NCBI GenBank assembly: GCA_045837725.1
Contig: JBEWZL010000132.1
Span: 62,001 to 126,000, forward strand
Direction: 5' to 3'
DNA length: 64,000 nucleotides
Origin: Vermamoeba vermiformis
Taxonomy: Eukaryota
Shown: positions 14,219-58,027 of the stretch, piece by piece
Position numbering within the stretch: the stretch's first letter is position 1
Layout: every line of letters starts with the position of its first letter
Position numbers and translations under genes: made by a program
Notes under the pieces: model-generated
Told to the model about the DNA's origin: nothing
Seen by the model: the letters and a program-made list of their open reading frames with translations, nothing else
The model's database searches: none

Positions 14219-17200
14219 CTATTTCTCGACGTACACAATGTCGGTAGCAGAGCGGCCAAAGATCTCAGGGCTGTACATTTCTTCAGCTTTAGCAGGTGGT
14301 ACGATGAACACACCTTCCGTAGTTGCGCGACAGAGGTACTTGTACTGATAGTGACCTTCCCATAATAACGATTGGAAGGCTTCAGCTCGTTCATCGCGCA
14401 AGTTTTGGTGTTCGTACCAGCGATGAGCGTGGTAGACACGTGTCGTGAACGGATTGTAGTTGTTTTGCGCGTTCAAATTGAGCACTGCACGCTGATCTTC
14501 ACCAGTCTCAACACCTAAAATAAGACGTTTTGTTAATACGTGATACTTTAGGATGAATTTGTTGCCTTTTATGGAAATTTCTGACTTACCTTTTAAGGCA
14601 GTGTTGATAATCTCGACACCAGCGGGTAATTTATCAACGAGAGCAATGTGATATCTGCGCGAGGTCGTGGTCATCATGACAGAAACACGCACCTTCTCGC
14701 CCAACTTGAAGTGCCAGTTGCCGTCCTTGTCTTGTGTCACGTGCTTCTTGTCGTCGACACCCTCGTAAGTACGTTCAATCTTGAAGCCGTAGCACGCTGC
14801 TTTCAACTTCAAATCGTCAGGGGCGTAGTTCATCGCGAGACGGTAGTACAATCTACCAGGGCCTTGTTTGGTCAAGATCAAATCAGTGTCGCCAGTCTCG
14901 AACAAGAACTGCATGGGCACGTTGATGATGTTCGTCTCAGTCGTGCGGCCCTTGAAGTTCTGTTCACCGGCAAATAGTTCGCCTAGCCAGACTTGTGCGG
15001 TGAAATTGGGCTCGTCTTTCTCGTAGACTGCAAAGTAGAGATCGAGTGCCACGAGAATCAAGCAGTTTTCTTGCGTGTTGTTCCATTTGCCGGCCTTGCG
15101 GTGGGCAAGCAGACCCTTGGCGAGCTTGGGAATGAGTCCGTTCTTTTGGTCCACGGTCAACAGCGCCTCGAGCAGGACACCATCGACTCTGCGGTCAGAG
15201 TGCAACATGACGTATTGGCCCTCTTGGTCTGAGTACTTGGTGATAAAGTTAGCAGTCTCAGCAGTCTCGTTGACTCTGTTCTGAATGAACTTGAGAATCG
15301 ATGCGATGGCGTCAGTAGTCTTCTTCGATTTGTCAGTGTGCATGGCAACCATCAACCAGCCCAACGAATCTAAGTTCACGCCTTCATTGCCTTGTTTTTC
15401 GTAGATCTTACGAGCTTCTTCAGCCACCTAAAGAACGAACAAATTGTGAGCTACGTTGTTTTTTAAAATAAATCAAACTTACGTTGTCACCGAGCTTTTG
15501 TCTGACGTAGAGGCAGTAAGCCAACAACGAGTACTTGGAGTGCTTGCTCATCCACCAGAAGTGCAAGTCCAAAAACATCTCGAGTGATTTCAAGAACTTG
15601 TGAGCACGCGAGAGAAGAGTCTTGTCGACAGTAACGCCTAATAAAATGCAATTAAGTAAAGATTTTTTCACGGAAAAATGACACGTGTCAACAAGTGTCA
15701 AATTAAACAACTTGAGCTACTTAAAGTACCTTTTTGTTGAGCCTTTGCCAAGCAGTGAGTGACGTGCACGGAAATAAAAGGATCAGGACAGCGCCAGTAA
15801 TCCGCAGTTTTCTTCCAGAAGTAAAATCCTCCCGTGAAGTGCGGCTTGAAGTCATGATCTTCTTGTCGCTTCAACAAGGTCTTGAGCTGCTCTTGGAGGG
15901 CCAACAAGATTGCCATGTTGGACGGCAAGTCTGGAACATTGAACGCTTGCAAGACGTCCTTCAACGAAACAATGCCGAGAATTCTCGAAGCCAGTTGTTC
16001 TGAGCAGTCAAACTCGTACTTCCACAAGTAGAGCACGGCGTCAGTGAGTGACTGCAACACGGTGGAACTCGTTTGCACTTCAAAGCCACCAAACTCTTTG
16101 TACACGTTCTTCGGGGTCTTGACGGGCTGGAAGACGACGGTCTTATCGCTAATGTCGCCGTAAGCTAAGTGATACAACGTTAGTAATGAAGTACAAATGA
16201 GGCTAAGTCACGTACTCGCAAAGGCCTCAGAAGTGGCAGGGGTCCAGACTGGCAATGAAATTTCAGCAGCGTCAGAGAAGTCCTCGCTAGACGCGACAAT
16301 TTGGAATCTAGCCGTGCCCGCGTACTTAGTCTCAACAGGCAAGAAGATAGCCACTCGCTTGGCAGCGCCAATCTTCATTCTGCGCAACACTCGTTAAGAC
16401 TTTTCCTGTAAAAGACGCTTAACTGCACGTACCTGTAACCACCGGTGAAGTTGCCTCTGAATCGTGCATTGGTGCAACGAGCGGCCACGCGCACAACGAG
16501 GTCTTGGTCAGTTTGATTTTGCAAGACCACGCTGCACTCGGCTTTGTCGCCCAAATTAAGGAATCGAGGGAACGATGGACGGACCATAAAAGGCAATTTA
16601 GCAACGACAGATGCATCGCCCAAGCCAAACTTGCGGTCAGTGACTGCCACAGCCCAGACACGGTACTTGGTCAATGAGTCCGGCAGTTTGAACTCGACGG
16701 AGACGTTGCCGTTCTTGTCGGTCACCACTGAAGGTGTGAAGTTTGCAATTGCAGTGAAATTGCTGCGCACTTCGATGGGCGTCGAGGCCTCTTCGACAGG
16801 TGCAGACAACGACCCGCTCAACATGTCCATTGAGGGAGCCATATCTTTTTTCCGTGCGTTAGCCATTGGAGCCATTGGAGGAGCTAAGCTCTGTTGCATC
16901 TGTGCCATCATTGGAGCAGGAGCAGCGGATTTAGCGGGCATTGCCGACGCCATTCGCATCATTGGACGTGGAGGAGCACCACCAGGGGCAGGGGGACCTC
17001 CTCCTCCCATTCCAGACGAAGAATCGCTAGCAACAGGCAATTCTGGCTCTGGAGGCTTTGGTGCGTTTTCTGCAAACTTTTGCAAGTCCTCAGAGCTACA
17101 ACCACCATGAATAATCAATGTATGAAAGAATTCTAATAGCTACGTACCTAATAAGCAAGACGGCGCTTCTCAAGTAAGAAAAGCCGGTGCCTGTTTGTCG

Positions 17201-20200
17201 GTGAGGATTGAACAAGGACAGAGGATTGCTCAACGAATAGCCAGTCAATGCCAAGACACTCTCGTCGACCACAATCACGCAAACTTCAGCGTTTTCCTGC
17301 GGCTCGTTCTTGGCATTAGCTACGTGCACGTTGACCACGGCTTGTGAGCCAGGCTTGTACGATGCTTGGCTGGTCGTAACATCGACCTTCAACTCGTCAG
17401 ACTTGTTGACAATGTTGATGTTGGCGAGGCCTTTAGCGAAGCAGGGGCGCGGAGGAGCGGTCAAATCTAGCACACCCGAGTTCAAGGCACGAGGCTTGCA
17501 ACCCATGAGATCGACTTGAATCTGCACGTTAGGCTGCCAGTCTTCTTTGATCGGGAACTTGACTGTCACAGAGTCCTCGACAAGTTTGAAGCGTTCAGTG
17601 TGCACGACACCTTCACACAACAGCGTTAACAAGCCTTCAGCGGGCTTGAACGGAGATTGAACGAGCAACTCTCCCGTAGTCTCTCCATCGAATGGCGAGT
17701 ATGTCTGTTTGTCGGGGATGATGATAGCCTCTTCTTGGGTCACTTTAGTGATCTTAGGCGTTGGCGTAGCCTTTGCACCAGACACGTTGAAGGTGACCTT
17801 GGTCTCATTGCGCAGCTCTATTGTTATGATTAGAATCAAGTCCGATAGTCACGTGCAGTGTCTCTTACTTCGACCGTCAGCTGTGATGAATTCAAAAGTA
17901 TACTGGCCTCCGTCTTTAGGGAAGTACTCGTAGACAAGTGGTTCGCTCTTCGAGACCAACTTGACGATCTTGCTGCTGCTCTTTTCAACTTCGCGAGTCA
18001 AACCTTGTTCGTCTGAAAACACTTGTTAATCACCATTTCTTGATAGTCCTTTGCACTTACCCTTCTCGTCTTGAACCCACTTGCGAGTCTGTTTGATCCA
18101 GAAAGGCACGCCTTCCTTAGCCTTGCCATCGATGTCGGTGACAATAACGTCCATAGGGAACAGATCGTGAGGCTTGCCGTAGGCTCGCTTGACATTGACA
18201 CCAAGGTAGTACTCCGAAGGGTGTAACAGGAAGCTGTGAGACCGTTAGAAAATTGAATTGCAGGTCAATGTCGTAATACCTTGTCGAAGTTTCACGGGTT
18301 TGGTAGTTAAGATCGGTGATGGCAGCAATAGCTTTCAGGGTCTTGGGTGCCTTCAAATTACCCGCGTAAACGATCTTCACTTCGTGTTCACCGTTCACAT
18401 CGGTCTTGCCATTCAATTCATTGCCTTCTTCGTCGGACTCTTCGTCGGATTCTTCGTGATCAAGGAGTGACGGGCGCAATAGAGGTCCACCTTTAATCAT
18501 CGGACGAGGAGGTGGAGGAAGTCCAAAGCTTGGTGTGACTGATCGAATACCAAATATTTGGCCACGAATGTCATCAAAAGTGAATGGTGTGAAGGTTGGA
18601 CGATCCATCCACCAGGGCTTGACGTCACCAAAAGAGAACTTGGACCAACCAGGCGGCGAGTAGAAAGCGTCGCTGTCTTGCAAAGTCCACTTGACCTTGG
18701 CGTCAGACAATCCTCCACCTGCAAAGTAGGTCGCCTTGGCCTTGGCAACAGCAAATCCTCCTTCCTTGCTTGCAATGTGATTGGAGATTGGAACGTAGCT
18801 CGAGCTCACTTCGTACTCGGGTCTGCGGAACTCTTCGACTTTGAACGTGTGGGTGTATGTAATAGAAGTGCCCACGGTAGTAAAAATCACTGACGCAGTG
18901 CCCAAGTTCATGTTGTCAGGCAAATTCAACTTGAGGTCAAAGGCACCAAACTTGTTGAATTCGAGATCTCCCTTGGAGATTTCCGCGCCACGTGGATCAC
19001 GGAAGACGTACGTCATCTTGCCGCTGCCATAGGTAGGCATGATTTTTCTTGTTTCGGATCGTTTCAAGTGTCGCAAGTAGCCCTTGATGTGAACCTCTTC
19101 TTTGGGTCTGTACAACTTTCTGTCATCAAACACGAACCAGTTGTTGCTCTCAAAGCCAGTCTTTGTGTAGTTAACGGGAGTAAATGCCACGTCATTGCCC
19201 TTCGAGCACATGACAATGCCCTTCGCTGCGCCATTGAACTTGGGGAACAAGATGATACCATCGTCATTTGTCTTGCCTGTAAACCGACGTTAAATCACGT
19301 GTCAAAAAAAGCCACTAGCTCGTACCTGAGCAATTGTTTGGAGCGCTAATTTGCACACCACTGGCAGGCTTGCCGTCTTCCAGCATCGAGGCCCACACGA
19401 GCAACTCTCCGCTGCCCTGTGAGAAGATAGTGTCCACGCACATGCGCGTAGATTGTATCCACGAGTACAACTTGGGGTGGTAGTCTTCGTACTTGTCATA
19501 GTAGCTGCTGTGGAAAACTCGCCAAGCGGCCTCAGTAGGCTCCACTCTGACAATCAACTGACCCAAGTTTTCATTAGGGAACTGCAAGTGAGGTCTCAAG
19601 TCAATCATCAATTGCTTGGGGACACCTGGTTCAACGTCTGTCTTGATAATGGTCTCGTGGACAACCTTTCCAAATTTGGAAACATGCGGACGGCGATTGT
19701 TGAACTCCGCAGTGGCAGAGAAGTACTCGGTGGGAGCGACTTGGTACACTTTGACGTGAAGCTCGTGATAGCCGACAACAATTGGGGTCAAAGTCGGGTG
19801 AGTCTTAGGATCAAGCACGACCAAGTTGGACGGGCCAGCTAATTACAAACCGTTAGACATTGCACGAAAATATAGGAGATTGATTTAGACTTACTAAGTG
19901 AGTCGTAACCGGGGCCAACCTTCACGTCGTACGTGTTAGCACCAGTCAGCTTTTGCTCGTAGACGTCGCACAAGGCACGATCAATGGTGACTGTGTACTT
20001 CTTGCTCGGGTCACTATCATTCTCGATAACGAGACACGATTGTTGTCTCATGAGGCCATAAGAACTGCCAAAGATCCCGACACTAGCAGTGTTAGCGGAG
20101 TTATTTTCAATTCTGAAAACAGCTTTCTTCAACGGAGGTGTGATCTTGACCATGCTCTCTTTGAAAGTGCCCATATCAATTGGATTCGTGAAGTAAATGT

Positions 20201-22467
20201 GCCAAGTAGCACGAGGATGGTAAGACGAAGGTCTGTAGGGCTGGTCAACACTAAACAATGCCATGGATTAGTAAGGCTGAAACAAAGTTGAATTATTAGT
20301 ACGTACCCGAACGGAGGATAAGTGGAGAATGAAGCACTTTGGACGGTGGTAGATTTCAACGGGCCTTCTAAGGACGGGACTGACGGACCAACATTGATGT
20401 TGTAAGTCGTGTTAGGCTTCAAATCTGTCTTGAATCTGAAGCCGAAGAACGTCGAGGCATTGATCTCGTTAGTGTCGTATCTGCGCGCAGCCAATGCGGC
20501 AAGTGTTTCTTCGGTGGAAAGCAATTGCAACTCCGGGGCGTTAGAAACCCTAGAGCTTGTTAGCGCGTTGAAATAAATCAAAATGAAAGACGTACTTGAC
20601 GACTTTGATAACCTCAGCCGGATTGATCCGTTGATCGAATCTCAAGACGATTGTCGGGCCCAAGCAATCGAGTCGCTGGCTGTAGCTGCTTGGAGAATGC
20701 GTCCACATGTTGTCAGAGAAGTTCGAGATGTAATGCACGTTCTTCAAAATCGGTGTGTTGGTGGAAAACTTCATGACAAAGTCTTTGGCCAGAACACCGT
20801 TCACCATCGACTTGGTGCCAGCAGGGATCTTAATGGAATAATCCGTGGAGAACGGGAATCGGCCCTCAGCCTCGAACTGCAATATAGTAGTGCCCTTCCA
20901 GACCCAACGACCGGCAATACCTTGAGGCTCCAATGTAGCAGGCACGGGGACTGAGGTAAGTTAGAACTAGATAGAATAGCTTATGCTGCACTTACTCTCT
21001 TTCAAGTCAGCGATGCTAGCAACAGGAACCATAGGCTGGTTGAATGTGATTGAAGCCACAGGCACGGGAACATTGAGAGATCCCTTCGGCGAGTGTCGTA
21101 AGATTTGAAGCTCGCCACCAGTCTCTTCTTTGTTGAGCTTCTTCGCCTCTTCCACGTCGATCACAACCTCGGGGCGAACTAGCACGTGTCAATATAATTC
21201 GTGAATAAGACTCTGTTGTCACGTACCTTCAGGTGGAGGAGGGAACGGTTGGTTGATTCGCTCGCCTGTCTTAGGAGCCTTCAACGAAGTTTCTATTGTC
21301 GGGTTAGTTTTCTAAAGTTCAGTCTTGTGGTAATGAAGACGCACCTCTCACAGCGAAGTTCTTCTCGTCACCCTCTGCGCTTTGAATAGGAGCAGCACGG
21401 TTCAATAACTTCTCCAAGGACTCTGCGTTAAGAGGTTCCATCGGCTCGACAGGTTGGTCAGTCTCGGGCTGCTCTTGTGCGTCTTGATCTTCCTCGGCAT
21501 CTGCCTCAATGTTCGCTGCCTCGACAGCGTCAATCTTTGTCAACTTGGTAGTGAAGGGCACGAGCTCAGTATCTAGCTTAAAAGTGAGTCCGAGTGGCGA
21601 ATGCATCACGTGAGTTGACGTTACCTGGCAAGTCATCAGGCTCTTCAGCACTAGAATCTTCGTCTTCCTCATCGATGCGAGGTGACTTAGCCTCGTCCTC
21701 GACAATGGCATAAGGAGACTTGGTGACATCTGCACAAAGTGTCAATCAATGTCACATCTGTCAGTTTACCTACCCTTGGTATTCCAGTTTGCCGATACTT
21801 TTAAGTTCTGCTTTTCTTGAATAGTATTATTTTTGTTTTCGTTCTCTTCCGTAGGCTTTATTTGACCTTCGCCGTACTGGATTTTGAGTTGGAGCGAACC
21901 TTGAACTGAATCTTTCTTGTTTGGGCGAGAAGATAACGGAAACCAGTCTTCAATTGGCGATTTGCTAAGCAAATCTTTGTTGATTTTAATTGTAACTTGA
22001 CCCTGGAAACGGTCAGATTCGAGAATCCGCAACGAGATCATAATATCTTACCAAAAACTTGTCAGCAAGCACTTTCTGCTTATGCCACAAGCTAATCTGG
22101 ACACCAGAAAAATCCGACGCATCACTAAAACGATTCAGTAAGCACCAAAAATTGAAATCGATTTTTCATGACGCTTACAAGCTTAGTTTTTCGTTCCAAC
22201 TCGGTGTTTGCGTCTTCTTAACAGGCTCTAAAAATTATACAATGGTTAATCAAAAAAATCTATTGCTGCTAAAGGAGTTTTACTTGTCGTGCTTGGCTTG
22301 CCGATCGCCTTGCCGCCAGCATCGAGCACTGCAACTACGACGTAGGCATCGTATTTGGACTTAAGATCCTTTCCAGCGACCGCTAAATTAAGAATGAGTC
22401 TCTTCTTCGGGATGTGGTAAATATCTTACGCACCTGTTACTTGGAGTTGCGTAGCTCCTTTCTCCAT
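14219..22467 (-). CDS. Bacterial-type alpha-2-macroglobulin with N-terminal C2 domain, multi-exon
   Basis: C2 motifs (PSWNE, ADKFLGQV, WFPL, GSLQLKIQY); Ig-like ITFNQPMV; MG2 FDDRKLYRPKEEVHIKGY; VEEFRRPEYEV; VVDESVLALTGY; VRSNF..LPDSLTKYRV; PRFLNLGD; thioester CSEQ (15995-16006); WNNTQEN; PPAKAEEMYSPEIFGRS. Confidence 0.9.
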
Positions 22468-43950: not shown

Positions 43951-46900
43951 TTATTTATATCTTGTTTTAGCCAATATTTCTCGGTCTATCGTTTTCTTCA
44001 GCTCGTCGAAGAAAGTCTTGCATCTGTATCTGTAGATTTTGCGGAAGAATTTTATCTGGGTATGTATTAGTTTAGTACTTAGTTCTATTAAATTTTCTTC
44101 ATCTTCTATAAATTGTTTGAGGTAATTATACGTGTATTTTGGAAGGAAACCGGAAACTCCGGCAATATTATTTATTTCTTCTTTTTCAAATTCTGCCGCG
44201 TCTCTAAAGTTTCTATTCTTTATTCTATACCATCTGCATGGGTCTCCTGGGGGTATTTTATATTTTTCGAGGATGCCGTCTATTTCGTGGTCGAGCTTTC
44301 TTCTAATTGGTTCGTACTCTCTGCACGCTGCGATTATATGTTTGGTATCTTCTGGTTTTTTGCAATGTACGCATTGGTTATTCGTGTATATTGTTTTGAG
44401 TCGGAGATTCTCTCGGTCTGTCCCTTCTTTCCTGATCTTGCGCATCATCTCTACCTTGCCGTTCAGTTGTTTATTCCTTAGTTTGAAAATGAAGTTTACA
44501 TCGTTGTTGGTAAAGTCCTTGTTATGCAGGTAGCTGGTTTTATGCGCTGCTGCTCGGAGTTTTCTGACGTCTTTAAGTTTAACAGTCTCGTGGTGTCTTC
44601 GTTGTTCTTCTAGTTTGATTAGGTTGCTTAGTTTATCCGTTTGTATTGTGTCATCAATTGTAAATATGTATTTTCTGGCGAGTCTTGGCACTACACCAAT
44701 TCTCATTAATTTGAGGCTTTGTTTGGCTAGTTGATCTGCCGCTTCGTTGCCTACGATTATTCTCGAGTAGTTGTCTCCGTATTTATCTTGTAGGGTCTTG
44801 AGTTTTTCTTTGAGTTCTTTTAGCTTTTTGGGGTCTTTTTGTAGTTTATTCATTTTATCGCCGATATGGCTAGGTACGTGTTCGTAGCTTACTCTAATTT
44901 TCTTTTCCGCGATCGTTGCCTTTATCCTGTTGATTACAGCTTCGTATTTTGGTGGTGGTCTTTTCTTTTTATTCGTTAGTACGTGTATCGCGCTCGTGCA
45001 ATCTGTAAAGATTCTGAGGTCTTGGCGTTGATGTGTGTTGATAGCATATTCTATAGCTTCTAGTTCCGACTCGAACGAGTCTTGTATATCGTTGGTTCTG
45101 CGGGCTGTGTTGAGTTTTGAGTTGCGCGTAAAGAAAACACCGAATCCCGCTTTATTTTGTTCTTTGTCCCATGAGCCATCTGTCCATACCCACGTCTCTC
45201 CATCAATCGTTATAAGGTCTTCTTCAGTGGTTTCGGCGTTTATTCTGGTTCTGCTGCGCTCCTCGGCTAGTTCTTTGTCAATGATTTCGTTCTTGATTTG
45301 GCCGTTATCTGTGATTATTCTCCTGACTGCTAGGTATTCTTTATTCGTTAATGGGCTACTGCTGGTTAGGTTTAGATGGAAGCGCGATTTAATTAGTTTG
45401 GTTTGAGTGGAAATATCTCTGGTGTATTTGATATTCATGTTTCGTAGTTTATCTCGCAGCGGTAACGAGTTAATACTTTGTAATAAGGGGCTGCCGTTTT
45501 CATTGATAGTGATTCCGACCTTAAATCGGTGGCAGCATTTAATTGCATTTATTATAATGTTGTCGTTGGGGTTAATGTTTTGTATTTTGGTTTTCGGTGA
45601 CTCTAGTTTATTGATGTTATCGATATCAACTGCCTTCATTCTGTATTCCAGGATGTCGGATAATATATCATTTCTGTTGAGACCTCTTTCGAATATGAAG
45701 TCTGCGAATGTTCTGTAGTTGAGGTCTTCTACGTTGGGGACGTTCAATCCACCTTCGTCTCTACTTATTGAGAATTGTGCATTGTTGAGGTTTTGTCGTA
45801 TCGGAATCGACCTCTTGAGGCACGTGAATATGCTATCTGATATTTTGTTGAGCGTTTTAGTTGGAAATATTATGTTATGAAATGGGTATTGTATTATTGG
45901 CAGTATTACTCGTGTTATCAGTTCGGCTTTGCAGTTCACCGATAGGTTTTTTGTTCGAATTATGGCTAGTTTATTTAAGAATTTCTTTTGGAAGTGCTCA
46001 AAGGTTTGCGTTAGGTCACCTTCGATATTCATAGGTATGCCGAGGTATTTGTAGTTCTCGTTCGCTTTCAGTGTTTTGATGTTTTTATTGTAGAATTTAA
46101 TCTCTTTTCCTGTCGTTTCATTCGCTGTGAAGGCTGACTTATCGTGGTTAACGAGTATGTTGTAGTACGTCGAGAATTTTTCCAGATCCGCACTCATTTC
46201 TGTTAGCTCTTTGAATGATTGTGCAATTAGTGCAATGTCGTCGGCGTATGCGAGGGTGGGTATTCGTATTGGTTTTTCAACATTGAGTACGTATCCGTCG
46301 TACTTGTTTTCGATATGTTTTAGAATTGGATTAATAAATATTATGAATAGTAGTGGTGAGAGTCCGTCTCCTTGTTTTACTCCTTTTTTGATATCGATCG
46401 GTGCAGACAGCTCTCCGTTTACAATTACCGCTGCGGTATTATCAGTGTACATGTTAATTATTAATTCGATAAAGTTATGGTCCACTTTATAGTATTCCAT
46501 AACCTGTTTAAGTCCCCAATGTTCTACGCTGTCGTAGGCTTTACTAAAATCGATATATTCTAGGTGTAGCTTTTTGGTTGTTTTATTGTCTTCGATGATA
46601 TTTTGTAGTATTGAAATTTGTCTTGCCGTGCTCATATTGCTTCGAAACCCTGCTTGGAATTGCGAAAGTAATTTATTTGTTTCGAAGTACTCTTCGAGGC
46701 GGTCTTTTATAATACTGCTGAAGATTTTATATTCTACCTGGAGTAGGCTAATCGGTCTGTAGTTGCCCGGGTCTCCTTGGTCGCCTCCTTTGTGGATTAA
46801 TGAGATCAGCGATTCTTTCCATTTGGTTGGGATCTGTTTTTGTATTAATATAGCGTTGAATATCTTTTTGTACTCTTTCAGTACGTCTTTTGAGCAGTGT

Positions 46901-48041
46901 TTAAGTATGTCGATCGGTATTTTATCGCTACCTGGTGTTTTATGGTTTGCCATTTTAGCGATTGTCTCTCGAATTTCTCGCAGTGATATCTTACGCATTA
47001 GGTCAAGGTTATATTCGATGTGAATGTCTTTTTCGAGCCATACAGGAGTATCGGTTCTTGGGGGGGTAGACGACGTGAGTGTTGCTTCCCAAAATGAGCG
47101 CACTTGGTTGCGGATGCCTTCTTTGTCTGTTATTGTTACGTTGTTTTGTTTGATGAATGGGATTGTCTTGTTGCTTGTTAGAGTTTCGAAGATTAGTCCG
47201 ATATATGTTTTGAAATTTGTGTCTCGTAGGCTAAGTCGTCGTTCAACTCTTGAATTGATATCATTTGTTTTCATTTGTTTTATCCTCTTATTATATTTTT
47301 TAACCTCTTCGCGTTTTCTTTCTTTGATTTCCTCTGCAGACGCATTCGTGTTGATGTTGCATTTCCCGAGTATCTTTTTTAGTTTCTTTTCTCTCGATGG
47401 CGATGCTAGCATATATATTTTGTGTTTAAGTCGGAGAGCTTTCAGTATTTGATGTATATTTCGTTTGATGTTGTTTAGTTCTGCATCTTGTTTGTACGGT
47501 TCTCGTTTGTTGTTAGATTTGAACTTTTGGAATATTAATTCGTGCCATTCGTTAAGTTTTTCGTTTATTCTGGACATTGGTTCGGTGCCTGTCAAGTGGA
47601 ATCCGCTGCTTTCGTAGAGGGTTTGTAGCTTATTTGGCGTTGATTTTTTATCAAGGTTGTGGGTATCGATTTTTTCTCTCAGTTCTTGGCTTGTCGCGCT
47701 ATCTTTGACTGTTGTAAAGCTGTATTCGAGTATGATTGCGCGGTGATCGGAATGTATTCTGTCTTGTTTCCATATATCGCAGTTGATAATACGTCCTTTT
47801 TTGTTGGTAATGAAATAGTCTATCCTGGATCGTGTTCGATAGATCTCTGGTGACGTTTCGTCTTTGTTTTCTCTTTCGAACGTGAATCCTTTCCGTAATG
47901 GGTAACAATATCGGAAGCAATCGGCGAGAGCGCGTATATCAAAGTTGTTCGTTACCGTTTCGCAGTGGTTTGCATGTTTAGAGGTTTTATTGAATTTCGG
48001 ATCTGATTTTTTAAGGCGGATATTTAGGTCGCCTCCTATTA
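43951..48041 (-). CDS. Retrotransposon polyprotein, 3' part: C-half of APE endonuclease, RT, RNase H, CCHC
   Basis: GGDLN, SRIDY, SDH; KTPGSD, YRPISLL, DFSKAYDSV, GVKQGDGLSP, YADD (46237-46248), YKYLG; TDGS/ELEA/FTDC/HVPSH/GNEAADQLAK; CVHC..H..C; frame open from 48041 to stop. Confidence 0.95.
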
Positions 48042-48117
48042 GGGACGAACTTTTAATGGTTTGAAAAATATCCCATGTTCAAGATGTAAGGTGTACACCT
48101 TACACTACCAAAATAAA
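48042..48117 (+). repeat. Left TIR of MULE-like element
   Basis: GGGACGAACTTTTAATGGTTTGAAAAATATCCC...TGTAAGGTGTACACCTTACAC matches the reverse complement of 54440-54517. Confidence 0.88.
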
Positions 48118-48124
48118 GTATCAT

Positions 48125-50783
48125 TTATTTCAATTGATTTTTTTGATTTCGCTTTGCCACTTGATATACAATCTTTTTCACATATCCCTTGGTATATTTT
48201 TCATCAAAAATGTAATGTTGCAACCAGTACAACAATCCTTGGGATATTCCTTGTCTTTCCTCAGACAGTTTCTTTAAGCCTTCAATACACAGCAGCACAT
48301 CTTCTTCTTTCACCTTTGGGTAGTTTGCCTTGCGGGAGGTAAAATGGGAAAGCTTTAAGTCTTGGAATGTCTTAAATGTTAGCAACTGGGCAAGAGATGT
48401 TCTGGAGTTTAACTGAAAGGGGGTGGTCAATTTCAGGGACAGAAGCAGTTGAAGTTTCAGGTGAGAGTGCTGTTCTGCTTGATTACGCATTTCATTGCTA
48501 TTCAATGGAATTAGAATTGTAACAATGTGATTGGTAGGTACCTGTAGTTATAAAGGAATTGCAAATGGGTTACAACAGCAACCAGAAGTTCAAAAGAGCA
48601 AGAACCACTGTAAAAGGGAGATGATTTCTTCAAGTATTTGTGCCAGTTTTCATTAACTGAAGTGCCCTTTGAATATTCTTTCAATGAAGCTGAATTGAGT
48701 ACAGCATCAAGGTAGCCCGCAGTAGGGTTTAAAAAGTTATTCACTGCCCCAAGTACTTTGGAGGTAATTATTGAAGGATAATTAGCAGCTGTTATAGTGT
48801 CTGAACCACTATTGCAATGTTAGTGTATAGTGTACACCTTACATATTTGACTAACCTTAAAGTGGCTGCTAGATTCTCAATAAATAATTGCATCTGTTCA
48901 TCTCTATCTTGGTGAGCTTTACTGTATTTCTCAAGCCAGACATTCAGCATAGTAGATAACTTTGCACTGTTTGGGTCAGCTGAATTACAGAGCTGTGCGA
49001 AAATGCCACTGAGTTCTTGCTTTGCTGAATAATAGTCTGTACATATTAGATAACATAGTAAGAATTGTATAAGCATACCAGGATGATTGTGTGCCATTAC
49101 GGAGTCAATTCGATGTATTACATGCCAAATATCTTGACAGGTCTTTGGCATAGTTTTGGCAGAGAAAGAGTTTAACCAAGCTGCTTTAACAAAGTTTTGA
49201 TCTGTTGATATCAAAATTTAGGTAAAGTATTAATTTATGAAATGTTCATACCTTTTCTGCTGTCATCAGTAAACACATGTGTGGTTGTGGGTTTGCTGTG
49301 GAGACTCCAAATATCATCAAACTCGTCTTCCATATATTTGCGCTCATCTGATGGAACTAATTTGCACACAAGCACTTGTCCTCTTTCATTGAGAATCGAA
49401 AGCAAAGAAGCCTTAATCTGTATCTGGAGTATAGGTTACACCATACACCGCGGAATTTCTTTAATGAACCTACTCTTTTTTTGTTCATTGTATCCATTGC
49501 TGAGAGAGCTGATGCAATCTTGTATGTATGATCAACTCGGAGCACTGTACCACTCTTTGCAATGATTTCATTATTGTAGTGATTGAAAAACTCTTTTTGC
49601 TTGCTGTACTTGAAAAGGTACAGAGCCTCCAGCATTTGACTATTGATAATGTACTTCTGTTCCAAAGCATCGACAATCACATCCACATCAGTTTCAGCAA
49701 AGACCTGTGTCAGAAACCCCTGCAATTCATTTAAATATTATTAGTGTATAGTGTACACCCTACGCTACATCTCGTTCTGGTACTGTTTCTTACCATTCGT
49801 ATCTTGTGAGACAGGTTTGATATCCAAGTGCCTACAATAGTCTTTGCCAATGCAGAGAAGTTAAAGGAGTGGGATGGAATTGTCATAAAGATATAATCCA
49901 GAAATTTGGTAGTAACAATTGTTCTTTCAAAAGACACCACTTGCGGAGTAATGCTATAGTCTTTGAGATCTGACTGAAGTAAAGAAAATATAATGTAGCT
50001 GTGTGTGCTGCATTGATACTTTTGGAAAGCCAATATAAAAGGACTTTCAGTATCAAAGCACCTTTCTCTGGTATCTTTTCCATAAAGCACAATATGACAT
50101 ACGTCTTTACCCTGAATAAAGTTAGAATTGAAAGTAATATGTTTCATTAGTACCTTATGGGATGGGCATTTGGTAGGCAAGTAGGTCAGCATATTGACTG
50201 GTTGATTTGCCCTCCACAGTTTCAGGTGCTCAACAGGCAAAACCGACTCCACCGTTGCTGCAAAGTGCGAAGAAGATGTAGCATAATGTTTTTCAGGGTA
50301 TTCGGCACTGTTGTGGATAGAGAGCTCTGCCAATTGTGAAACAACGTCTTCGGTGTAAGGAGTACCCTCTACATCATCGGCCGATTCTACATTTTTCTTA
50401 ATTTTTGGGGCTTTTAACTGTTTCTTGACTGGACTAATGACAATGTTGTGTGTTTTAAGCTTCTTCTTTTGTGCTCGCTCTGCTAAGAATGTTTGGTCCT
50501 GCTGCAGAGTTCTGCGTTGTGGCAGTGGATTCACATCTGAGTAAATTGTAAAACCATAATATTATTAGCAAAACAAATACATACCTTGTAAATGCATTTT
50601 AGTGGCTTGATGCTGCAGCAATTCTTTTTTGGAATTTTTTTGGATGTTGCAGATGCATCCTGTTCGGTAATTCCAAAGTCGGCAAACATAGGTTTTCCGA
50701 TGGTTGCCAGATTTACCAAGCACAATATATTGGTAGCTGGTGTACCCCGGTTCCTTGTTTTGTTCGACAATAAGTTGTTCCAT
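48125..50783 (-). CDS. MULE-like DDE transposase, multi-exon, N-terminal zinc-finger-like segment
   Basis: LRVDHTYKIA (D1), VFTDD (D2), QDIWHVIHRI (DxxH), GTSVNENWH (E); the exon joins I checked are in frame via GT-AG introns. Confidence 0.8.
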
Positions 50784-50814
50784 CTGATTTTATCGTTTTT
50801 ACACGAGCACAACA

Positions 50815-53800
50815 ATGCAAACGCGACTGCGTGCAAGAGCAACAAACCAAAACAAAAACAATAACAATAATTCCCTTTCCAAAAAAAGGGCACGAGACGA
50901 GAGTGAGATTGAGCAGATCGAGATCGCTAGCGAACAAGCCACTAGCAACAAACGGCAGAAAACAACAAAATCAAGTAAGTAATAATTTTGGTTGTAATTT
51001 TTTAATGCGGGTTTAAATAACGGTTTATTTTTTTGATTTTTCTCCCGCGCAAATTAATTTCTTTTTGTTGATTAAAAAACGGTCTGATCCAGAACACAGC
51101 AAGCACAGCAAACAGTGCTTCCCAAGTGGCTGAACGCGCTCCCCAAAACCCCGATATTGCAGGCGAACCCGGTAAGTGTAAATCTGATCACGTTAATTTT
51201 TAATACCCGAATCTAGGCAACACAGCTAACTCAACGCGCACCAACACTACAAATAGGGGTGCACAAGAACGCGAACGCGTTCCCCACGACCGCGATACTG
51301 CTGGCGAACCCGGTAAGTGTAAATCTGATCAGATTGAATTTTTTCTAACCGAATCTGGTCAACACAGCTAACTCAACGCGCAGTGACACTACGAATAGTG
51401 TTACACAACACCGCGAACGCGTTCCTGAAGACAGTGCTGGTGCAGGCGAACCCGGTAAGAGTAAATCTGATCAACTTAATTTTTATTGACTGAATCTGGT
51501 CAATACAGCTAACTTAACGCACAGCAACACTACAAATAGTGCTGCACAAGACCGCGAACACGTTCTGGAAGACCGCGATAGTGCTGGCGAACCCGGTAAG
51601 TGTAAATCTGATCGGATTGAATTTTTTCTAAGCGAATCTGGTCAACACAGCTTACTTAACGCGCACCAACAGTACAAATAGGGGTGCACAAGAACGCGAA
51701 CGCGTTCCCCACGACCGCGATACTGCTGGCGAACCCGGTAAGTGTAAATCTGATCAGATTGAGTTTTTCCTGACCTGAATCCAGCAACCACCACTGGTGT
51801 AAACACTGCTGCTGCTGGTATTATCGCCGCCAGCGAGTATACGCATGGGAGCAATGCTAGCCAGTGCATAAATCAGCCAGGTAAGACGTTTTTTTACTGT
51901 TTAAAAGTTCGTAGCTGATGTCACTAACCGATCGCGAATCCAGTTTCGACCGAACCAATGCCCACAAATGGTAGCAGTAGTCTATCAGATACTAATACGC
52001 GTGCTCCCGACAATTGCTATGGTGGTAGCGAAGCAGGTAAGTGTAAATCTGATCAACCTAATTTTTAATTAACCGAATCTGGTCAACACAGCTAACTCTA
52101 CGCCCAGTAACAGTACGAACACTGTTGTACAACAACGCGAACGCATTCCCGAAGACCGTGATAGTGCTGGCAAAGCAGGTAAGTCTAAATCTGATCAGCT
52201 TAATTTTTTGTAACCTGAATCTAGGCAACACTACCAATTCAATGTCCTCAAACATTGCGAATAGTGTTGCACAAGGCCGCGAACGCATTGCTGAAGACCG
52301 CGACATTGCTGGCAAAGCAGGTAAGTGCAAATCAGATCAGCTTAATTTTTTCTAACCTGAATCTAGGCAACACTGCCAACCCAATGCCCCCAAACACTAC
52401 GAATAGTGTTGTGCAAGACCGCGAACGCGTTCCTGAAGACCGCGATGGTGCTGGCACACCAGGTAAGCCAAAAGTTACTTGTAAAATACTTTGATCTAAC
52501 GTCAAATCCAGGCACAGCTGACACCAGTGCTTCCCAAGTGCACGAACTCATCCCCAATGCCCGCAATAATGATGCTATTGACAATGAACAAGCTCGTGAC
52601 ATTAGACAGCCCACTAGTAAGCCCAATGAGCAAGGTAAGTTGAACTGCCGATCTATGGACAACTTTTGAAATGTATCATTGACAATTATACGATTACAGT
52701 TAATACCGCGGCAGTACAGAACAACACCAACGAGCACACAGATCGTCAACAGGGGGTAGCAATAGCAGGTAAGTTTTTGTGTAAGGTGTACACTGTACAC
52801 CAATGCTGATTGGCTTGCAGGGGCAGCACCGGACTCTCTTGCTGCAAACTACAGTGACAGACCACGTAGAAACCGAACACTTAGACGTGGTGTGTGAAGG
52901 CAAAAACGTTGTATTACAGGATACTAATTCTTTTTCCCTGTTACATAGCTGTAGACACTGCTAGTGACGAGTCCTCAGAATCCAGCTCTAACAGCAATGT
53001 ACAGCAGGTAATTGAAGTTGGCGAAGATAATGAACAAGGGGACTTGCTAAAAGGTAATTCGTATCGGTAACCGGTGTACTCCTTACACCCTTTTATTTAG
53101 TTGTTGGGCAAACAAAAGAAAGCAGCGCAGATCAGTATGCTGCTGTTGATAATATTGTTGCTGTAAACAAAAACGATATTGTGGCAGTGTTGGGAGAAGA
53201 CAACGAAATTTGGTTTGCGAAAGTTGTCAAAGCCCCAAGAGCCAAGAACAACTTGGCAAAACTTACTGTTTCTTGGTATCAGTGTGAAGCACGGACGAGT
53301 TCGAACGCACTGTTAATCTCTCCAGAACAAAACCAGTCCAGCATAGAATTGGGGGCTATTTTGGATAAAGTTGCTTTCACAAAAATGCCTGGCAAGCAAC
53401 TTTGCATTGACAATTCAGAGTATCAGCGTGTTCAAGTTATTGGTACGTAATCAATTCCCTTCTAGCACTTGACCAATTACTGACCTTAATCTCAATACAG
53501 CAACAAAAATTACTGAGCAGCCAGACTCATCTGCAAAAACAAAACAAAGCCCGAAAAAGACTTCGAAAAAGAACAAGAACAAGGCAAAAAAGAAGAAGAG
53601 CAAAAAGAAAAACGCAAAAACATCCGCTGCATCGTAAGTGTACAGTGTACCCTTTACACCAATGTGTAACTTACTTTACACAGAGCTGCAATTGTTGAAG
53701 AAGATAGTGAGCCTGGCGCCAACATGCAAAACAACGCCAATGTTTCTAAAGTGCCACAAACTGCAGATGTTGATATGGGTGAGGTTGGTCCTGATGATGC

Positions 53801-54412
53801 TTCTGTTTCTTTTAGTTCTGCTGAGGAGGATGCCAAACACCAGTTTATGCACGAAACTGACGTTACTGTGGCATCGATTTATGATGTTAATGCTGATTCT
53901 TGTAAGTTTCTCTTCATATTTTTATGGATCTAATCTTTTTTTTGTTGTAGGGGATGTTAAGCTCGCCAAGTTTTCAAAATGGCTTTTGCAATATGGTATA
54001 TTCAACAAAGATTATATGGACAATGGCAAAACGTCTGGTGGCTCAACAGCACTGCACTTATATTTTTTTTACCGTATGTACAGTGTACACCGCACACAAC
54101 TGTCACTCACTACTTTTAGTGTTATCTGCCTTCAGGGACCACGTACTTCCCACTCCTGCTGAAAAGCGTGCTACTTTGCTTTCTGCAGGTATTACAGAAG
54201 ACAATCATAAGCACTACACTCTACTGTGCCACGACATGACACTTGAAGGAAATCCTCTGGTGCACCGCCCCACTGCCTTTACAAAGAAGACTATTACTTC
54301 TGTTCATCGCTGGTTAGTGCAGTACTCATTGATCAGAATTTCTCATGAGCCTGGTGCCAAAAGAAATAGGGTGTTTGTATGTATACCACCTTTGCGTCCG
54401 ATTTGGCAATAA
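50815..54412 (+). CDS. Transposon accessory protein: NLS, tandem 32-aa repeats, BAH-like domain, Lys-rich tract, C-terminal globular domain
   Basis: MQTRLRAR..KKRARD..KRQK first exon; NDIVAVLGEDNEIWFAKVVK..LTVSWY; KKNKNKAKKKKSKKK; final exon ends CIPPLRPIWQ* just before the TIR. Confidence 0.7.
51093..52510 (+). repeat. Tandem array of about 10 x 142-bp exon+intron units
   Basis: GTAAG(TGTAAATCTGATC)-type donors at 51172, 51313, 51455, 51596, 51738, 51881, 52037, 52179, 52321 and 52463. Confidence 0.9.
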
Positions 54413-54439
54413 AACCTGTTTTACGTTTATTTGGTGCAA

Positions 54440-54515
54440 ATTTTTTATTGTTGGTGTCAGGTGTACACTGTACACCACGAAAACGGGATATTTCTCAAAT
54501 CGTTAAAAGTTCCCC
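54440..54515 (-). repeat. Right TIR of MULE-like element
   Basis: Reverse complement reads GGGGAACTTTTAACGATTTGAGAAATATCCC...TGTACAGTGTACACCTGACACC. Confidence 0.88.
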
Positions 54516-57500
54516 CCTCCTATTATTATATGAGAGTTTGTATTTCTGTCGATAATTTTATCGATCTTTTTAAGAAAGCGTTCGTAGAATGCTTTCTTTT
54601 CGGTTTTATTTGACGTTGCCGGACCGTAAACATTTACTATTGCAAGCGTCTCTTTATTTACTTCAATGATCAAGATTATGAAACGCTTGTATTTATCTTT
54701 GATGATCTCTTTAATAAATGGTTTCCATTTTACATTGAAAGCAATTGCGATCCCGTGTTTACCATTTTTTGGCGGGTTGATCCAGTTGATGCGGTCTTCT
54801 TTCTCGGTTTCGTTTATGGTAGTATCATTCATAATCTTTTTTATTAGTTTTTCTTTTCTCTCTTGGACGATGTCTTTCGTAGTGCGATTGTTCCACTCAA
54901 TTGCAACTTCATTGTGTATTTGTTTTCTACACAGGTAGTCTTCGGCAGTAATTTTCGTTTCTTGAATGAGATAAAAATCAATTTCATTGTTCCTTATAGC
55001 TTCGACGATATCTTGTAGTTTGTCTTCGGCACCTCCGTTGATATTTTTCGAAATTAGTCTAATATTATGTTTATGATCTTCAGGGAAATACCACGCATCT
55101 TCTTTTTCGTCCTTATCATCGTAGTCATGCGGTAGCAGTTCAATTTCGCTGTCATTTTCCGGATGTGACCATTGGATCTGAAACTTAAACGGGCTTTTTT
55201 CTTCCATAATTCTGCCTTCGTAGTATTGATCACTGAATTTTATTTTCACTTGTTTACCAAGCCATGTTTTTGTGTCGGGATTGGGATAGGATATTTGCGG
55301 ATCGCCTCCGATTAAGCCAATCTCGGCTTTTAAACAGACTTGGTTGTTAGTGATATCTATGGTGCTATTCATATTAGTTATCATCTTACCATCTTTGAAT
55401 AATTTAATGCATTCCGGTGGTAAGTTAATTCTTTTTGAGCATTCATTACAGATCTCCTGTATCGCGATCTTTGTGTAATGCGTTTTAATATTAATCTCCT
55501 CGTTGTCAAGTGCTACTTTAATATTATTTCCAATTTTTTCGCTACTTTGTTTAGGGTTCTCGGCGCGTTGGGGCTTTGTCTGCTGGTTTCGAGATGGATC
55601 TTTAAGTTTTGGTCGTAATTTTGGTTTTATTTGTGAGTGGTATATTGTCGGTATTATAATAGTGTTTTTCGATAGTGTTATAAGTATATATAATACCTTT
55701 AGACTCAGTCGTCTATAATTTTTTTTGGATCGTGGTTTAACAATTGTGATAATTAATATGCAATTTATTTCGTTTATAAATGTTATTATTAAAGTGATAC
55801 ATGCGGTGAATAAGATTATAATTATTAATATTTTAAGTGTCGAGGTGTGTTCGTTTTCATTTTCTCTTCTCGGCGATCTTTCGTGCAATCTAAATAGTTC
55901 TATAATTAGCGTACACACTATTACTATTTGGTATGTCTTATTTACCGATTCAGCGTATTCTCTTGGTGTGAAAATATCGAAAATGTGGCCACGGGTGAAT
56001 CCGATCTTTCTGTGGAAACGTTTGATTGTCGCGACGTCCATCTCACTGTCACAGTGTACTTGTACGTACTCTCCTTTGCGTAGGCCGTCCGATTTTGGTA
56101 TATATACTCGTACTACTTGCGTTTTTGTCTTCGAGATTTGGCCTTCTAAGAATATTTTCAATTTGCTTGCTTTGATGTTGTATGCTAATTTTGGTGGAAT
56201 TGGGCCCATCCATAACGTTAGATTTTTGGGATGACTGATCTCGAGTGAGTATTTTGTGCCGTTGATGATGATCGATGTACCGTTGGTTGGTATTATCTTA
56301 TCAAGTTGTTGTTCGTCTGCATCGAACACAATTAAGCACTTCTCTCTTGTAGCGTTGAAATCGTCGAGAAACCATTTGAAATACGGTTTGGTGGGGAGCT
56401 TAGTTTGAACTTGTTGCTGTACTTCGTTTCTATGTCCTAATGGTACTGATATAATAATCGCTGCTCGATCAAGGACTATCGCTTCTCCTCTTGGTGGTTC
56501 TGTGATAATTGTATGTCCAATCGGGATAAGAGATCTGATCTCAGTTCTCGCTTGTTCGGAGAAGGCACACCAGTAGGTAGTTTTGATATTGTTCATAAGG
56601 ACTGTGACGCTGCGACTTATGTCGATTTTGTTTTCGATGTTGCGGATTCTTGAGTTGATCGTGGTTAGTTGGGACTGTGAGATTTGTTGAGCTCCGATCC
56701 AGAAATCATTGTCATCATCTCCGATTGAGAGGAAGTCAAGTAATGTTTGTTCTTCCATGTCGATGTCGTTATCGTTCGTTGTTTTTTCGGTTATTCCATT
56801 CGTGTTGTTTTCTAGTTGGGATCCGTTGTTGGGCAGATGCGTAGTTAAAGGAGGCTTAGTAGTGTTATTGTTGTTGTTGATAACTTCTTGGTTGGTTTGT
56901 TCAGTATATTGTGCGTTGTGTTCTTTTGGTTCGTTGCTTGTTACTTCGATCTCTTGATCGGGTGCATCGAGTGTCTGGATGACGTTGTTGTTGTTGTTTG
57001 GAGCTCCTATGTTGTTTTCATGGTCATTATAGAAGTTCATTATTTCTGAAACGATATTGGTTGTCTCTTCGACTGATGCGTCTTCGATCTCATCGTGGAT
57101 GTTTCCTCCTTCCGTTGATGGTGTTGTGAATTGGTTTACGTTGAGCGCTGCTTTAAACCGTTTATTGGGAGATGAGCAATTTGAGCTCGGGTTGCTTCTT
57201 TTGCTCATTAGTACAGTTTGAGAATAAATTAGATTTAAGATCAGCTTACTATTTATATTTTTTTGTTCACCTCTCTTGTGATTAGTTATATCGCCTATGA
57301 GCTTTATTTCTGTGTTTCTTTCTTTTTGTGATGTTGTGTTGGTGTAAGTTTCGATCGATGTTTCAGGATGTGTTCGTGTTCGGGCCGTTTGTGCTTCTAG
57401 AAGGTTTTCCGTTTGTGTTAAGCTGATACGATGGCTTAGTAGTGATCCATTTATTATCGTAGGGGTGATTATAAGACATATTTTGGGTGTAATTTTGGGA

Positions 57501-57820
57501 TCGGGTTCAGATGAGATTGGTTCAGGAAATTTTTGTTTATTTATGTTTAGAGTAATATACATTAGCAGAATAATTAAGAGTGTTTTTAAATTGTATATCG
57601 TGTTTTTCCAGTTCTTTAGGCAGTTTGAAACTGCGGGGCCAATGTTTTTTAGAGTGCTTTGGCGTGCACGGTTATGTTTATATTTGAGTCTTACTTGTAA
57701 TAGTTTTTTGCGTGGAATTTGTGTTTTCGGAATGTTATTTTTTTGGATTTGTTTCGGATTTTGTGGGCTAGTATCATGTGTGGATAATAGGTCTATTAAC
57801 AATATAAATATAGCAAGCAT
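54516..57820 (-). CDS. Retrotransposon polyprotein, 5' part: hydrophobic leader, RRM-like, TM segments, ubiquitin-like, Tudor-like, N-half of APE
   Basis: First in-frame ATG at 57820, 52 nt from the element 5' end; stop-free to IIIGG; SKNING, LIQETK, GIAI and IVNVYGP APE motifs. Confidence 0.85.
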
Positions 57821-58027
57821 TTTTGTTTGTCGTATATTCTCTCCTCTCGTCTCTCTCCTATGCCGGTCATCCGGGGAATTAAAGTTTACTGGGCAGCGCA
57901 GCTTTTGTGTTTGATTCTCCGAAGGATTTTCTCGGAGAAAAAAAGAAATCTCCCGTGGAGGATCTCGCTCGAAAACTATCACTACAAATTTTGATTTACA
58001 CAAATAGAGCATCTGTGTATATCAAGA

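Follow-up and report, generated by a model that had tools for sequence, protein, structure and literature searches.

It is already known that transposons have repeated binding sites close to their ends, and in one plant family, VANDAL, sites used in anti-silencing lie in introns. Multiple protein sites that stand apart from the cleavage site and assist the assembly or regulation of the transposition complex are found in En/Spm (12-mers bound by TnpA), Ac (hexamers), Hermes and, as an internal enhancer, phage Mu. VANC21 of Arabidopsis binds the short motif YAGTATTAY, through which it localises to the introns, the intergenic stretches and the non-coding terminal parts of VANDAL21, its own element of the Mutator superfamily; the motifs are many, lie in one orientation at high density and are formed by tandem repeats (PMC5735166). 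For Muta1 of Aedes aegypti, more subterminal repeats were found to mean more binding by the transposase and more excision (PMC5499845). Here we analyzed 64,000 nucleotides of DNA from Vermamoeba vermiformis (GenBank assembly GCA_045837725.1, contig JBEWZL010000132.1, positions 62,001 to 126,000 of the forward strand; hereafter the window, whose first letter is position 1), in which a DNA transposon at 48042-54515 carries a 22-bp near-palindrome in both of its terminal inverted repeats (TIRs), with further copies in seven introns of the two genes that it encodes. This motif pattern is real, element-specific and far beyond chance. Based on the letters of the element and its relatives, the best-supported explanation, which we consider about an even call, is that the copies are scattered binding sites for a protein that the element encodes, housed in introns for want of other non-coding DNA.

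Allowing up to three mismatches to the consensus GTGTAnnGTGTACACnnTACAC (equivalently GTGTANNGTGTACACNNTACAC), we found nine matches in the window, all within 48084-54475, while none of 100 dinucleotide shuffles yielded any match to GTGTANNGTGTACACNNTACAC (0 expected). The core GTGTACAC occurs six times in the window, each time inside the transposon. A position weight matrix (PWM) was built on the seven strong sites, with 50353, 49427 and 53067 kept out of the training set. The ten best sites that it found in the window score 18-35 bits and all lie in the transposon, two in the TIRs, seven in introns and one, degenerate, in an exon; the other 57,526 bp peak at 8.9 bits. The ten sites, listed without strand, are:

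48084..48105, motif in the left TIR, ATGTAAGGTGTACACCTTACAC, 33.0 bits
48823..48844, motif in gene 1 intron 7 (47 nt), 30.9 bits
49427..49448, degenerate motif in gene 1 intron 4 (50 nt), 3 mismatches, 19.3 bits
49744..49765, motif in gene 1 intron 3 (74 nt), 29.0 bits
50353..50374, degenerate motif in gene 1 exon 2, where it encodes EGTPYT, 3 mismatches, 23.4 bits
52779..52800, motif in gene 2 intron 13 (52 nt), identical to the consensus, 34.8 bits
53067..53088, degenerate motif in gene 2 intron 15 (47 nt), 4 mismatches, 18.0 bits
53638..53659, motif in gene 2 intron 17 (50 nt), overlapping the 5′ splice site region, 31.7 bits
54076..54097, motif in gene 2 intron 19 (46 nt), beginning at intron base 3, 30.7 bits
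54454..54475, motif in the right TIR, 32.3 bits

A first-pass annotation of this window had placed the motif in both TIRs and in seven introns, had described 48085-48104 as a perfect 20-bp palindrome and had called the copies at 49427 and 53067 degenerate. The PWM and our gene models agree with the placement (48823, 49427, 49744, 52779, 53067, 53638 and 54076 all fall in introns), the palindrome was verified on the sequence, and the two copies called degenerate score 19.3 and 18.0 bits. That the motif would prove confined to the transposon under a PWM scan was also borne out within the window. The accompanying claim that no copy lies in exons or in host introns stood for the part of the window outside the element, where nothing reaches 10 bits, but not for exons: the copy at 50353-50374 outscores both degenerate intron copies. 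The right half of this exon copy matches the gene 2 intron 15 copy over 14 nt (GTACTCCTTACACC), and the relative P0002 (54% identical) has GTPYT where the exon copy lies, while other relatives have ADPF there.

Scores among the element's 27 introns are all or none, with 7 at 18 bits or above and 20 at -3.5 bits or below. Seven of the eight internal sites are in introns, which make up 1,472 of the 6,257 internal nt (23.5%; binomial P = 2.5e-4). The sites occur in both orientations, one copy per motif intron, and once brought into a single orientation they spell GTGTAAG-GTGTACA-CTGTACA-C, a near-palindrome made of three heptamers. The TIR sites at 48084 and 54454 sit 43-64 bp inside the element ends, and successive sites are separated by 739, 604, 317, 609, 2,426, 288, 571, 438 and 378 bp. 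The one long gap, 2,426 bp, spans the central promoter region and a tandem array in gene 2, which is devoid of the 22-bp motif (its introns score -5 to -17 bits). As a separate observation, GTAAGTGTA, in which a 5′ splice site leads directly into a GTGTA half-site, is present six times in the window, each time in an intron of the transposon.

The element that holds these sites is 6,474 bp long and was delimited by inverted-repeat detection and alignment; its 77-nt TIRs have arms that are 78% complementary, and a 10-bp target-site duplication (TSD), CCTCCTATTA, is identical on both sides (48032-48041 and 54516-54525). Genes were modelled as open frames chained via GT-AG introns of 42-125 nt. 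A two-gene TIR transposon with a 10-bp TSD is supported by these features:

48032..48041, unstranded, left TSD CCTCCTATTA, by sequence reading, with the same letters at 54516-54525
48042..48118, plus strand, left TIR (~77 nt), by inverted repeat and alignment
48125..50783, minus strand, gene 1, putative transposase, spliced open-frame model of 9 exons and 8 introns, 753 aa, intact
50815..54412, plus strand, gene 2, accessory protein without family match, spliced open-frame model of 20 exons and 19 introns, 840 aa, intact
51132..52467, plus strand, tandem array of 142-bp units inside gene 2, each unit one exon and one phase-1 intron
54439..54515, minus strand, right TIR, by inverted repeat and alignment
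54516..54525, unstranded, right TSD CCTCCTATTA, by sequence reading and a contig of sequencing run X4

The two genes diverge from the centre of the element, where only 31 bp (50784-50814) separate the start codons, and therefore each promoter must overlap the other gene. At the other ends, the stop codons (48125-48131 and 54408-54413) lie ~8 and ~27 bp from the inner TIR edges. AATAAA overlaps both stop codons, and since the TIR palindromes are found ~20 and ~40 nt farther downstream, the TIR copies of the motif are probably beyond the mRNA 3′ ends while the intron copies would be spliced out. Because the element is packed in this way, with 31 bp between the starts and the stops within ~30 bp of the TIRs, introns would be nearly the only protein-neutral place for such sites.

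From the sites, their specificity, their placement and the conservation of their columns, all of which were observed directly, we infer that a protein binds them, which protein this is likely to be and what its binding would do. The 22-bp unit, three GTGTACA-like heptamers in a near-palindrome, would be the recognition site of an element-encoded DNA-binding protein, most likely the transposase in the form of a dimer or multimer; the presence of the motif in the TIRs as well makes the transposase the first candidate, in parallel to Muta1 and its subterminal repeats. With one site just inside each end and eight more across both arms at 288-739-bp intervals, the array would retain more of the protein on the element. 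Its role may instead, or additionally, lie in opening chromatin or in a feedback by which the element regulates its transcription. Within introns of 46-52 nt, each site would fill the stretch from the 5′ splice site to the branch region.

Several features of the copies bear on this proposal. The ten aligned sites contain 33 mismatches, which pile up in 6 columns and leave 8 columns invariant, namely G8, G10-T11-A12, C15 and T18-A19-C20; permutation gave P = 0.00025 for the variance and P = 0.006 for the number of invariant columns, although shared ancestry of sub-variants can inflate this test. Such uneven column conservation is the pattern expected of a contact site. Furthermore, only the palindrome recurs: other 10-mers of the TIR are no commoner inside the element than outside it, where there are 23 matches, including one 13-mer. 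One candidate, located in gene 2 intron 7 (51901-51912, ACGAACTTTTAA) and corresponding to the outermost 12 nt or so of a TIR in inverted form, was rejected as being at chance level in AT-rich sequence. The motif also adds no length, since motif introns measure 46-74 nt with a median of 50 and the other introns have a median of 52; it thus takes up, and does not extend, the spacer that separates the 5′ splice site from the branch region.

We next consider whether the copies could act in RNA, as pre-mRNA hairpins that control splicing or feed a small-RNA pathway. Folding of the seven motif introns gave z-scores of +1.10, -0.77, -0.13, -2.25, -0.67, -1.23 and +0.56, with one of the seven below -2. 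That one, gene 2 intron 13, folds at -17.6 kcal/mol, and it speaks for an RNA role together with the 5′ splice-site-like strings that the motif holds (GTAAGG), its overlap with the real 5′ splice site in gene 2 introns 17 and 19, and the AATAAA signals that would keep TIR copies out of the mRNA. Against this, shuffles fold as well as the other six motif introns, the place that the motif takes with respect to the splice sites ranges between bases 3 and 29 of the intron, and Rfam gave no match at gathering level, the one match being a sub-threshold small nucleolar RNA. The lack of a consistent hairpin points to DNA rather than RNA as the level of action; an RNA hairpin was rejected as the main explanation on the folding z-scores, and we hold an RNA-level role to be very unlikely. 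One unit of the gene 2 tandem array that was also folded (51313-51367) has a 5′ part that pairs with its 3′ part (z = -2.9), and GTAAGTGTAAATCTGATCA is common to the introns of that array.

Introners are intron-generating mini-transposons, and the motif introns might likewise have arisen when a tiny element derived from the TIR inserted, carrying splice signals with it. The presence of transposon-derived sequence within introns is what such an origin would leave, and the motif supplies part of the 5′ splice site in two introns and adjoins a CTAAY branch-like string in gene 1 introns 3 and 7. The similarity among motif introns, though, is confined to ~22-27 bp at variable offsets, with no flanking duplication seen, and the introns are of ordinary length. 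The position of gene 1 intron 3, moreover, is common to all five relatives that cover the end of exon 3. Intron 3 therefore predates the transposon, and this shared position together with the short similarity at variable offsets indicates that the motif did not create these introns. Neither near-full-length intron similarity, nor an insertion signature, nor absence of the introns from relatives was found, and we rate this origin as highly improbable.

The principal rival holds that the subterminal palindrome was copied into the introns by gene conversion or break-repair template switching and is tolerated there without function. Neighbouring copies do share sub-variants (GTGTATAGTGTACACC at 48823 and 49744; GGTGTACACTGTACACCA at 52779 and the right TIR) along with 2-4 nt of flank, and the motif copies therefore spread at least in part by copying. 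In addition, 3 of the 10 copies are decaying, and the purging of such insertions from exons would by itself give an intron bias. The present copy is also silent in two RNA runs (0 reads at least 99% identical), a strain that may lack the copy. Functionless copying does not readily account for the length of the motif introns (median 50 against 52 nt), as each copy would need a matching deletion, nor for the 8 core columns free of mismatches, nor for the recurrence of just a 22-bp piece out of a 77-nt TIR. The relatives described below add two further points against it, namely an excess of motif-compatible peptides in relatives at 32-74% identity and a motif-free intron, intron 6, that shares nothing past its first residue with a 74% identical relative. 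Taken together, these points make passive copying doubtful, if still the alternative that deserves most weight.

External support for the gene models is limited to gene 1. A HMMER search with the exon 2-3 open reading frame (ORF) against 1.84 billion representatives returned 15 proteins at E ≤ 0.001, namely itself and 14 relatives, all of the latter short ORF fragments with 32-62% identity. Fragments of relatives end at the borders of gene 1 exons 2, 3 and 6: the matches end 1-6 residues from the modelled end of exon 2, and at the modelled end of exon 3 they stop within 1-2 residues in 5 of the 5 fragments covering it. A search for longer proteins with the same ORF gave no match. The exon 6-7 ORF found only itself and P0017 (74% identical), which reads through intron 6 for 14 residues, of which only the first (G) is common with the present element; the last exon of gene 2 found only itself and no relatives. 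RNA offers one further check, as one joint in reads of a paralogue from run X16 begins exactly at the modelled border of exon 5 and intron 5.

To ask what the relatives may retain of the motif, we scored each peptide segment in their ORF fragments by its best possible back-translation against the motif, using as null 154,746 positions in six-frame ORFs outside the element. The 15 relatives (32-74% identical; 5,979 positions) contain three segments of at least 22 bits, against 0.12 expected; three of the 154,746 null positions reach 22 bits (maximum 22.8), and none of 200 residue shuffles gave three or more. Specifically, SVNYTLYI lies where P0004 (62% identical in exon 3) reads through intron 3, KCKVYSIQ in P0009 reaches 24.4 bits, above the null maximum, upstream of a part resembling exon 2, and EAQGTPYT in P0002 stands at the position of the present exon copy. 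This evidence is indirect, in that it shows what the DNA at these places could contain and not what it does contain.

DNA of the relatives was sought in metagenome contigs with P0003 or an alignment as query, and in genome contigs with exon 4, and none was found; two protein queries found no relatives in viral contigs either. The exact motif gave four single matches in genome contigs, all in prokaryote genomes or metagenome-assembled genomes and at about chance level. Searching viral contigs with the motif pattern returned two phage-like loci, one of which, L002, was set aside as unrelated despite its TGTACAC heptamer repeats. This phage-like IMG/VR contig has two copies of CTGTACAGTGTACACTGTACAC, at 1995-2025 and 2480-2510, which lie 484 bp apart and flank an AT-rich non-coding stretch; the copies are the same heptamer array in an unrelated setting.

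A number of results weigh against a dispersed binding-site array. The signal from the wider family comes from motif-compatible peptides, not from DNA, with one of the three segments exonic and the position of that in P0009 ambiguous. Among the ten copies, three are degenerate and one is exonic, and the shared sub-variants fit copying as well as selection and inflate the column test. Pfam found no DNA-binding domain in any exon piece or in eight relatives. Sites more than 2 kb from an end exceed what is known for subterminal transposase sites. Finally, none of the 8 and 9 reads aligned in two RNA runs was at least 99% identical to the present copy, which the RNA strain may lack.

Sequencing runs were informative on the element in other respects. 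Near-identical pieces of it (at least 99% alike) make up 23 of 24 aligned pieces in run X3 and 17 of 22 in run X4, both from one study, and no RNA run is among the listed sequencing runs that contain the element. Run X16 has a few RNA reads from a 90-95% identical paralogue. Paralogous reads and contigs differ from the present copy at 11 places, 10 of them synonymous third positions, and the transposon family is therefore under purifying selection. The present copy itself appears competent, with both ORFs intact and a perfect TSD. It splits an ORF of a long interspersed nuclear element (LINE) on the minus strand (54503-58021, then 43951-48078) that is open on both sides of the insertion and is grouped by Atlas with reverse transcriptase / RNase H / endonuclease LINE proteins, the nearest clusters being animal. 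One contig of run X4 fuses 48031 to 54516, with 10 letters that fit either side (shorter side 30 letters; likeness threshold 90), and this single contig is the uninterrupted LINE site.

The transposon is probably a member of the Mutator superfamily, because its 10-bp TSD and long TIRs fit the description of that superfamily, in which TSDs are 8-10 bp and TIRs typically exceed 100 bp (PMC5499845). The duplication here is 10 bp on both sides, and the TIRs are long, although at 77 nt they fall below the typical length. By eye, the spliced gene 1 protein shows RVDHTYK, VFTDD ~73 aa later and DIWH 27 aa further on, a D..D..(C/D)xxH pattern, the last motif of which stands 15-45 aa after the second D in DDE transposases of the superfamily; a candidate E in SVNENWHKYLK has no conserved W shortly upstream in the same reading. 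The Pfam profiles MULE, Transposase_mut and those of zinc-finger DNA-binding domains gave no match for six exon-level pieces of gene 1, each queried by itself, the catalytic region being split over five short exons. Pfam as a whole gave no matches for ten pieces of the element at E up to 1 or for eight relatives at E up to 0.1, and sequence searches of the PDB with element pieces returned chance-level matches only.

Gene 2 raises the question of whether its product, rather than the transposase, uses the sites. The first-pass annotation had likened the system to VANC, stating correctly that these proteins bind motifs in introns and other non-coding parts of their element (PMC5735166). Under this explanation the gene 2 protein would bind the intron and TIR motifs and remove or block silent chromatin on its own family. 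The element does have a second, non-transposase gene, and the organisation of that gene is suggestive: each unit of its array is an exon of ~87 nt followed by a phase-1 intron of ~46-55 nt, the exons encode about nine 29-aa repeats, and VANC genes likewise have a tandem-repeat exon/intron organisation with tandem peptide motifs (PMC5735166). The concentration of the motif in the non-coding parts of the element (2 TIR sites and 7 of 8 internal sites intronic) and its element specificity agree with the proposed likeness. What the comparison lacks is the form of the VANC motif, a 9-mer in dense tandem arrays of one orientation, whereas here single 22-bp copies lie in mixed orientation 288-739 bp apart. 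Moreover, gene 2 was similar to no family in the searches made, and a motif common to the TIRs indicates the transposase first. The suggestion of a BAH-like accessory protein found no support for exon 16, which had no Pfam match at E up to 1 and whose best PDB sequence match was to an SH3 domain (E 0.31); its closest Atlas clusters are unnamed and animal and, like those nearest the LINE, lend no support to the protist setting in that annotation. Based on these results we regard a VANC-like function of gene 2 as improbable. There is a similarly small chance of a broader self-recognition analogous to VANDAL/VANC outside plants, in which a TIR-derived 22-bp site seeded through the element's own introns would be bound by the gene 2 product (repeat-rich, with a putative SH3-like barrel) or by the transposase, would keep chromatin open or mark the element as 'self', and would belong to a set of sites that turns over between introns across lineages.

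Elsewhere in the window, at ~14219-20960 on the minus strand, lies a bacterial-type alpha-2-macroglobulin gene (Pfam bMG10, 8.6e-32; MG2, 1.2e-12). Its sequence is spread across many frames, as it would be in an intron-containing gene; it has a GC content of 0.46-0.51 against 0.37-0.42 nearby, and is a candidate for horizontal acquisition.

If the copies of the 22-bp motif do form a binding-site array, this compact transposon would have made its introns into a scaffold on which copies of a TIR motif are scattered. It would follow that the intron sequence of selfish elements can be selected at the DNA level, that binding-site arrays can reach kilobases from element ends and that VANC-like self-recognition may occur outside plants. 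An uncharacterised transposase family, the relatives of which have to date been known only as unnamed metagenomic fragments, also gains a simple 22-bp candidate site in this motif.

To our knowledge, the sites of En/Spm, Ac and Hermes lie within a few hundred bp of the ends and those of Mu in a dedicated non-coding control region, and none are scattered through the introns of element genes. Introners resemble the present case in having transposon-derived sequence in short introns; the introns of this element have ordinary lengths, at least one of them occupies a position that distant relatives share, and the similarity is confined to the motif. The literature that we searched held no account of a TIR motif spread through a transposon's own introns, VANDAL/VANC being the sole case of intron-located sites. 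Plant Mutator-like elements with multiple long TIRs share the presence of extra internal TIR copies, but theirs are whole long TIRs and here it is a 22-bp piece that recurs (PMC3310237). VANDAL21/VANC21 is alike in its extra genes, in the motif within its own introns and non-coding parts and in an accessory gene of tandem-repeat exon/intron structure (PMC5735166, PMC10398659); the likeness to gene 2 is one of organisation. VANDAL21 differs in that its sites are dense 9-mers of the same orientation, whereas here single 22-bp near-palindromes stand one per intron and the motif doubles as a subterminal TIR element. Muta1 is likewise Mutator-like, with an end that begins GGG and a repeated site inside the TIR, but its nine tandem 12-bp copies all lie within a 145-bp TIR (PMC5499845); the transposon described here has one copy per TIR and eight more up to 2.3 kb inside, in introns and in one exon.

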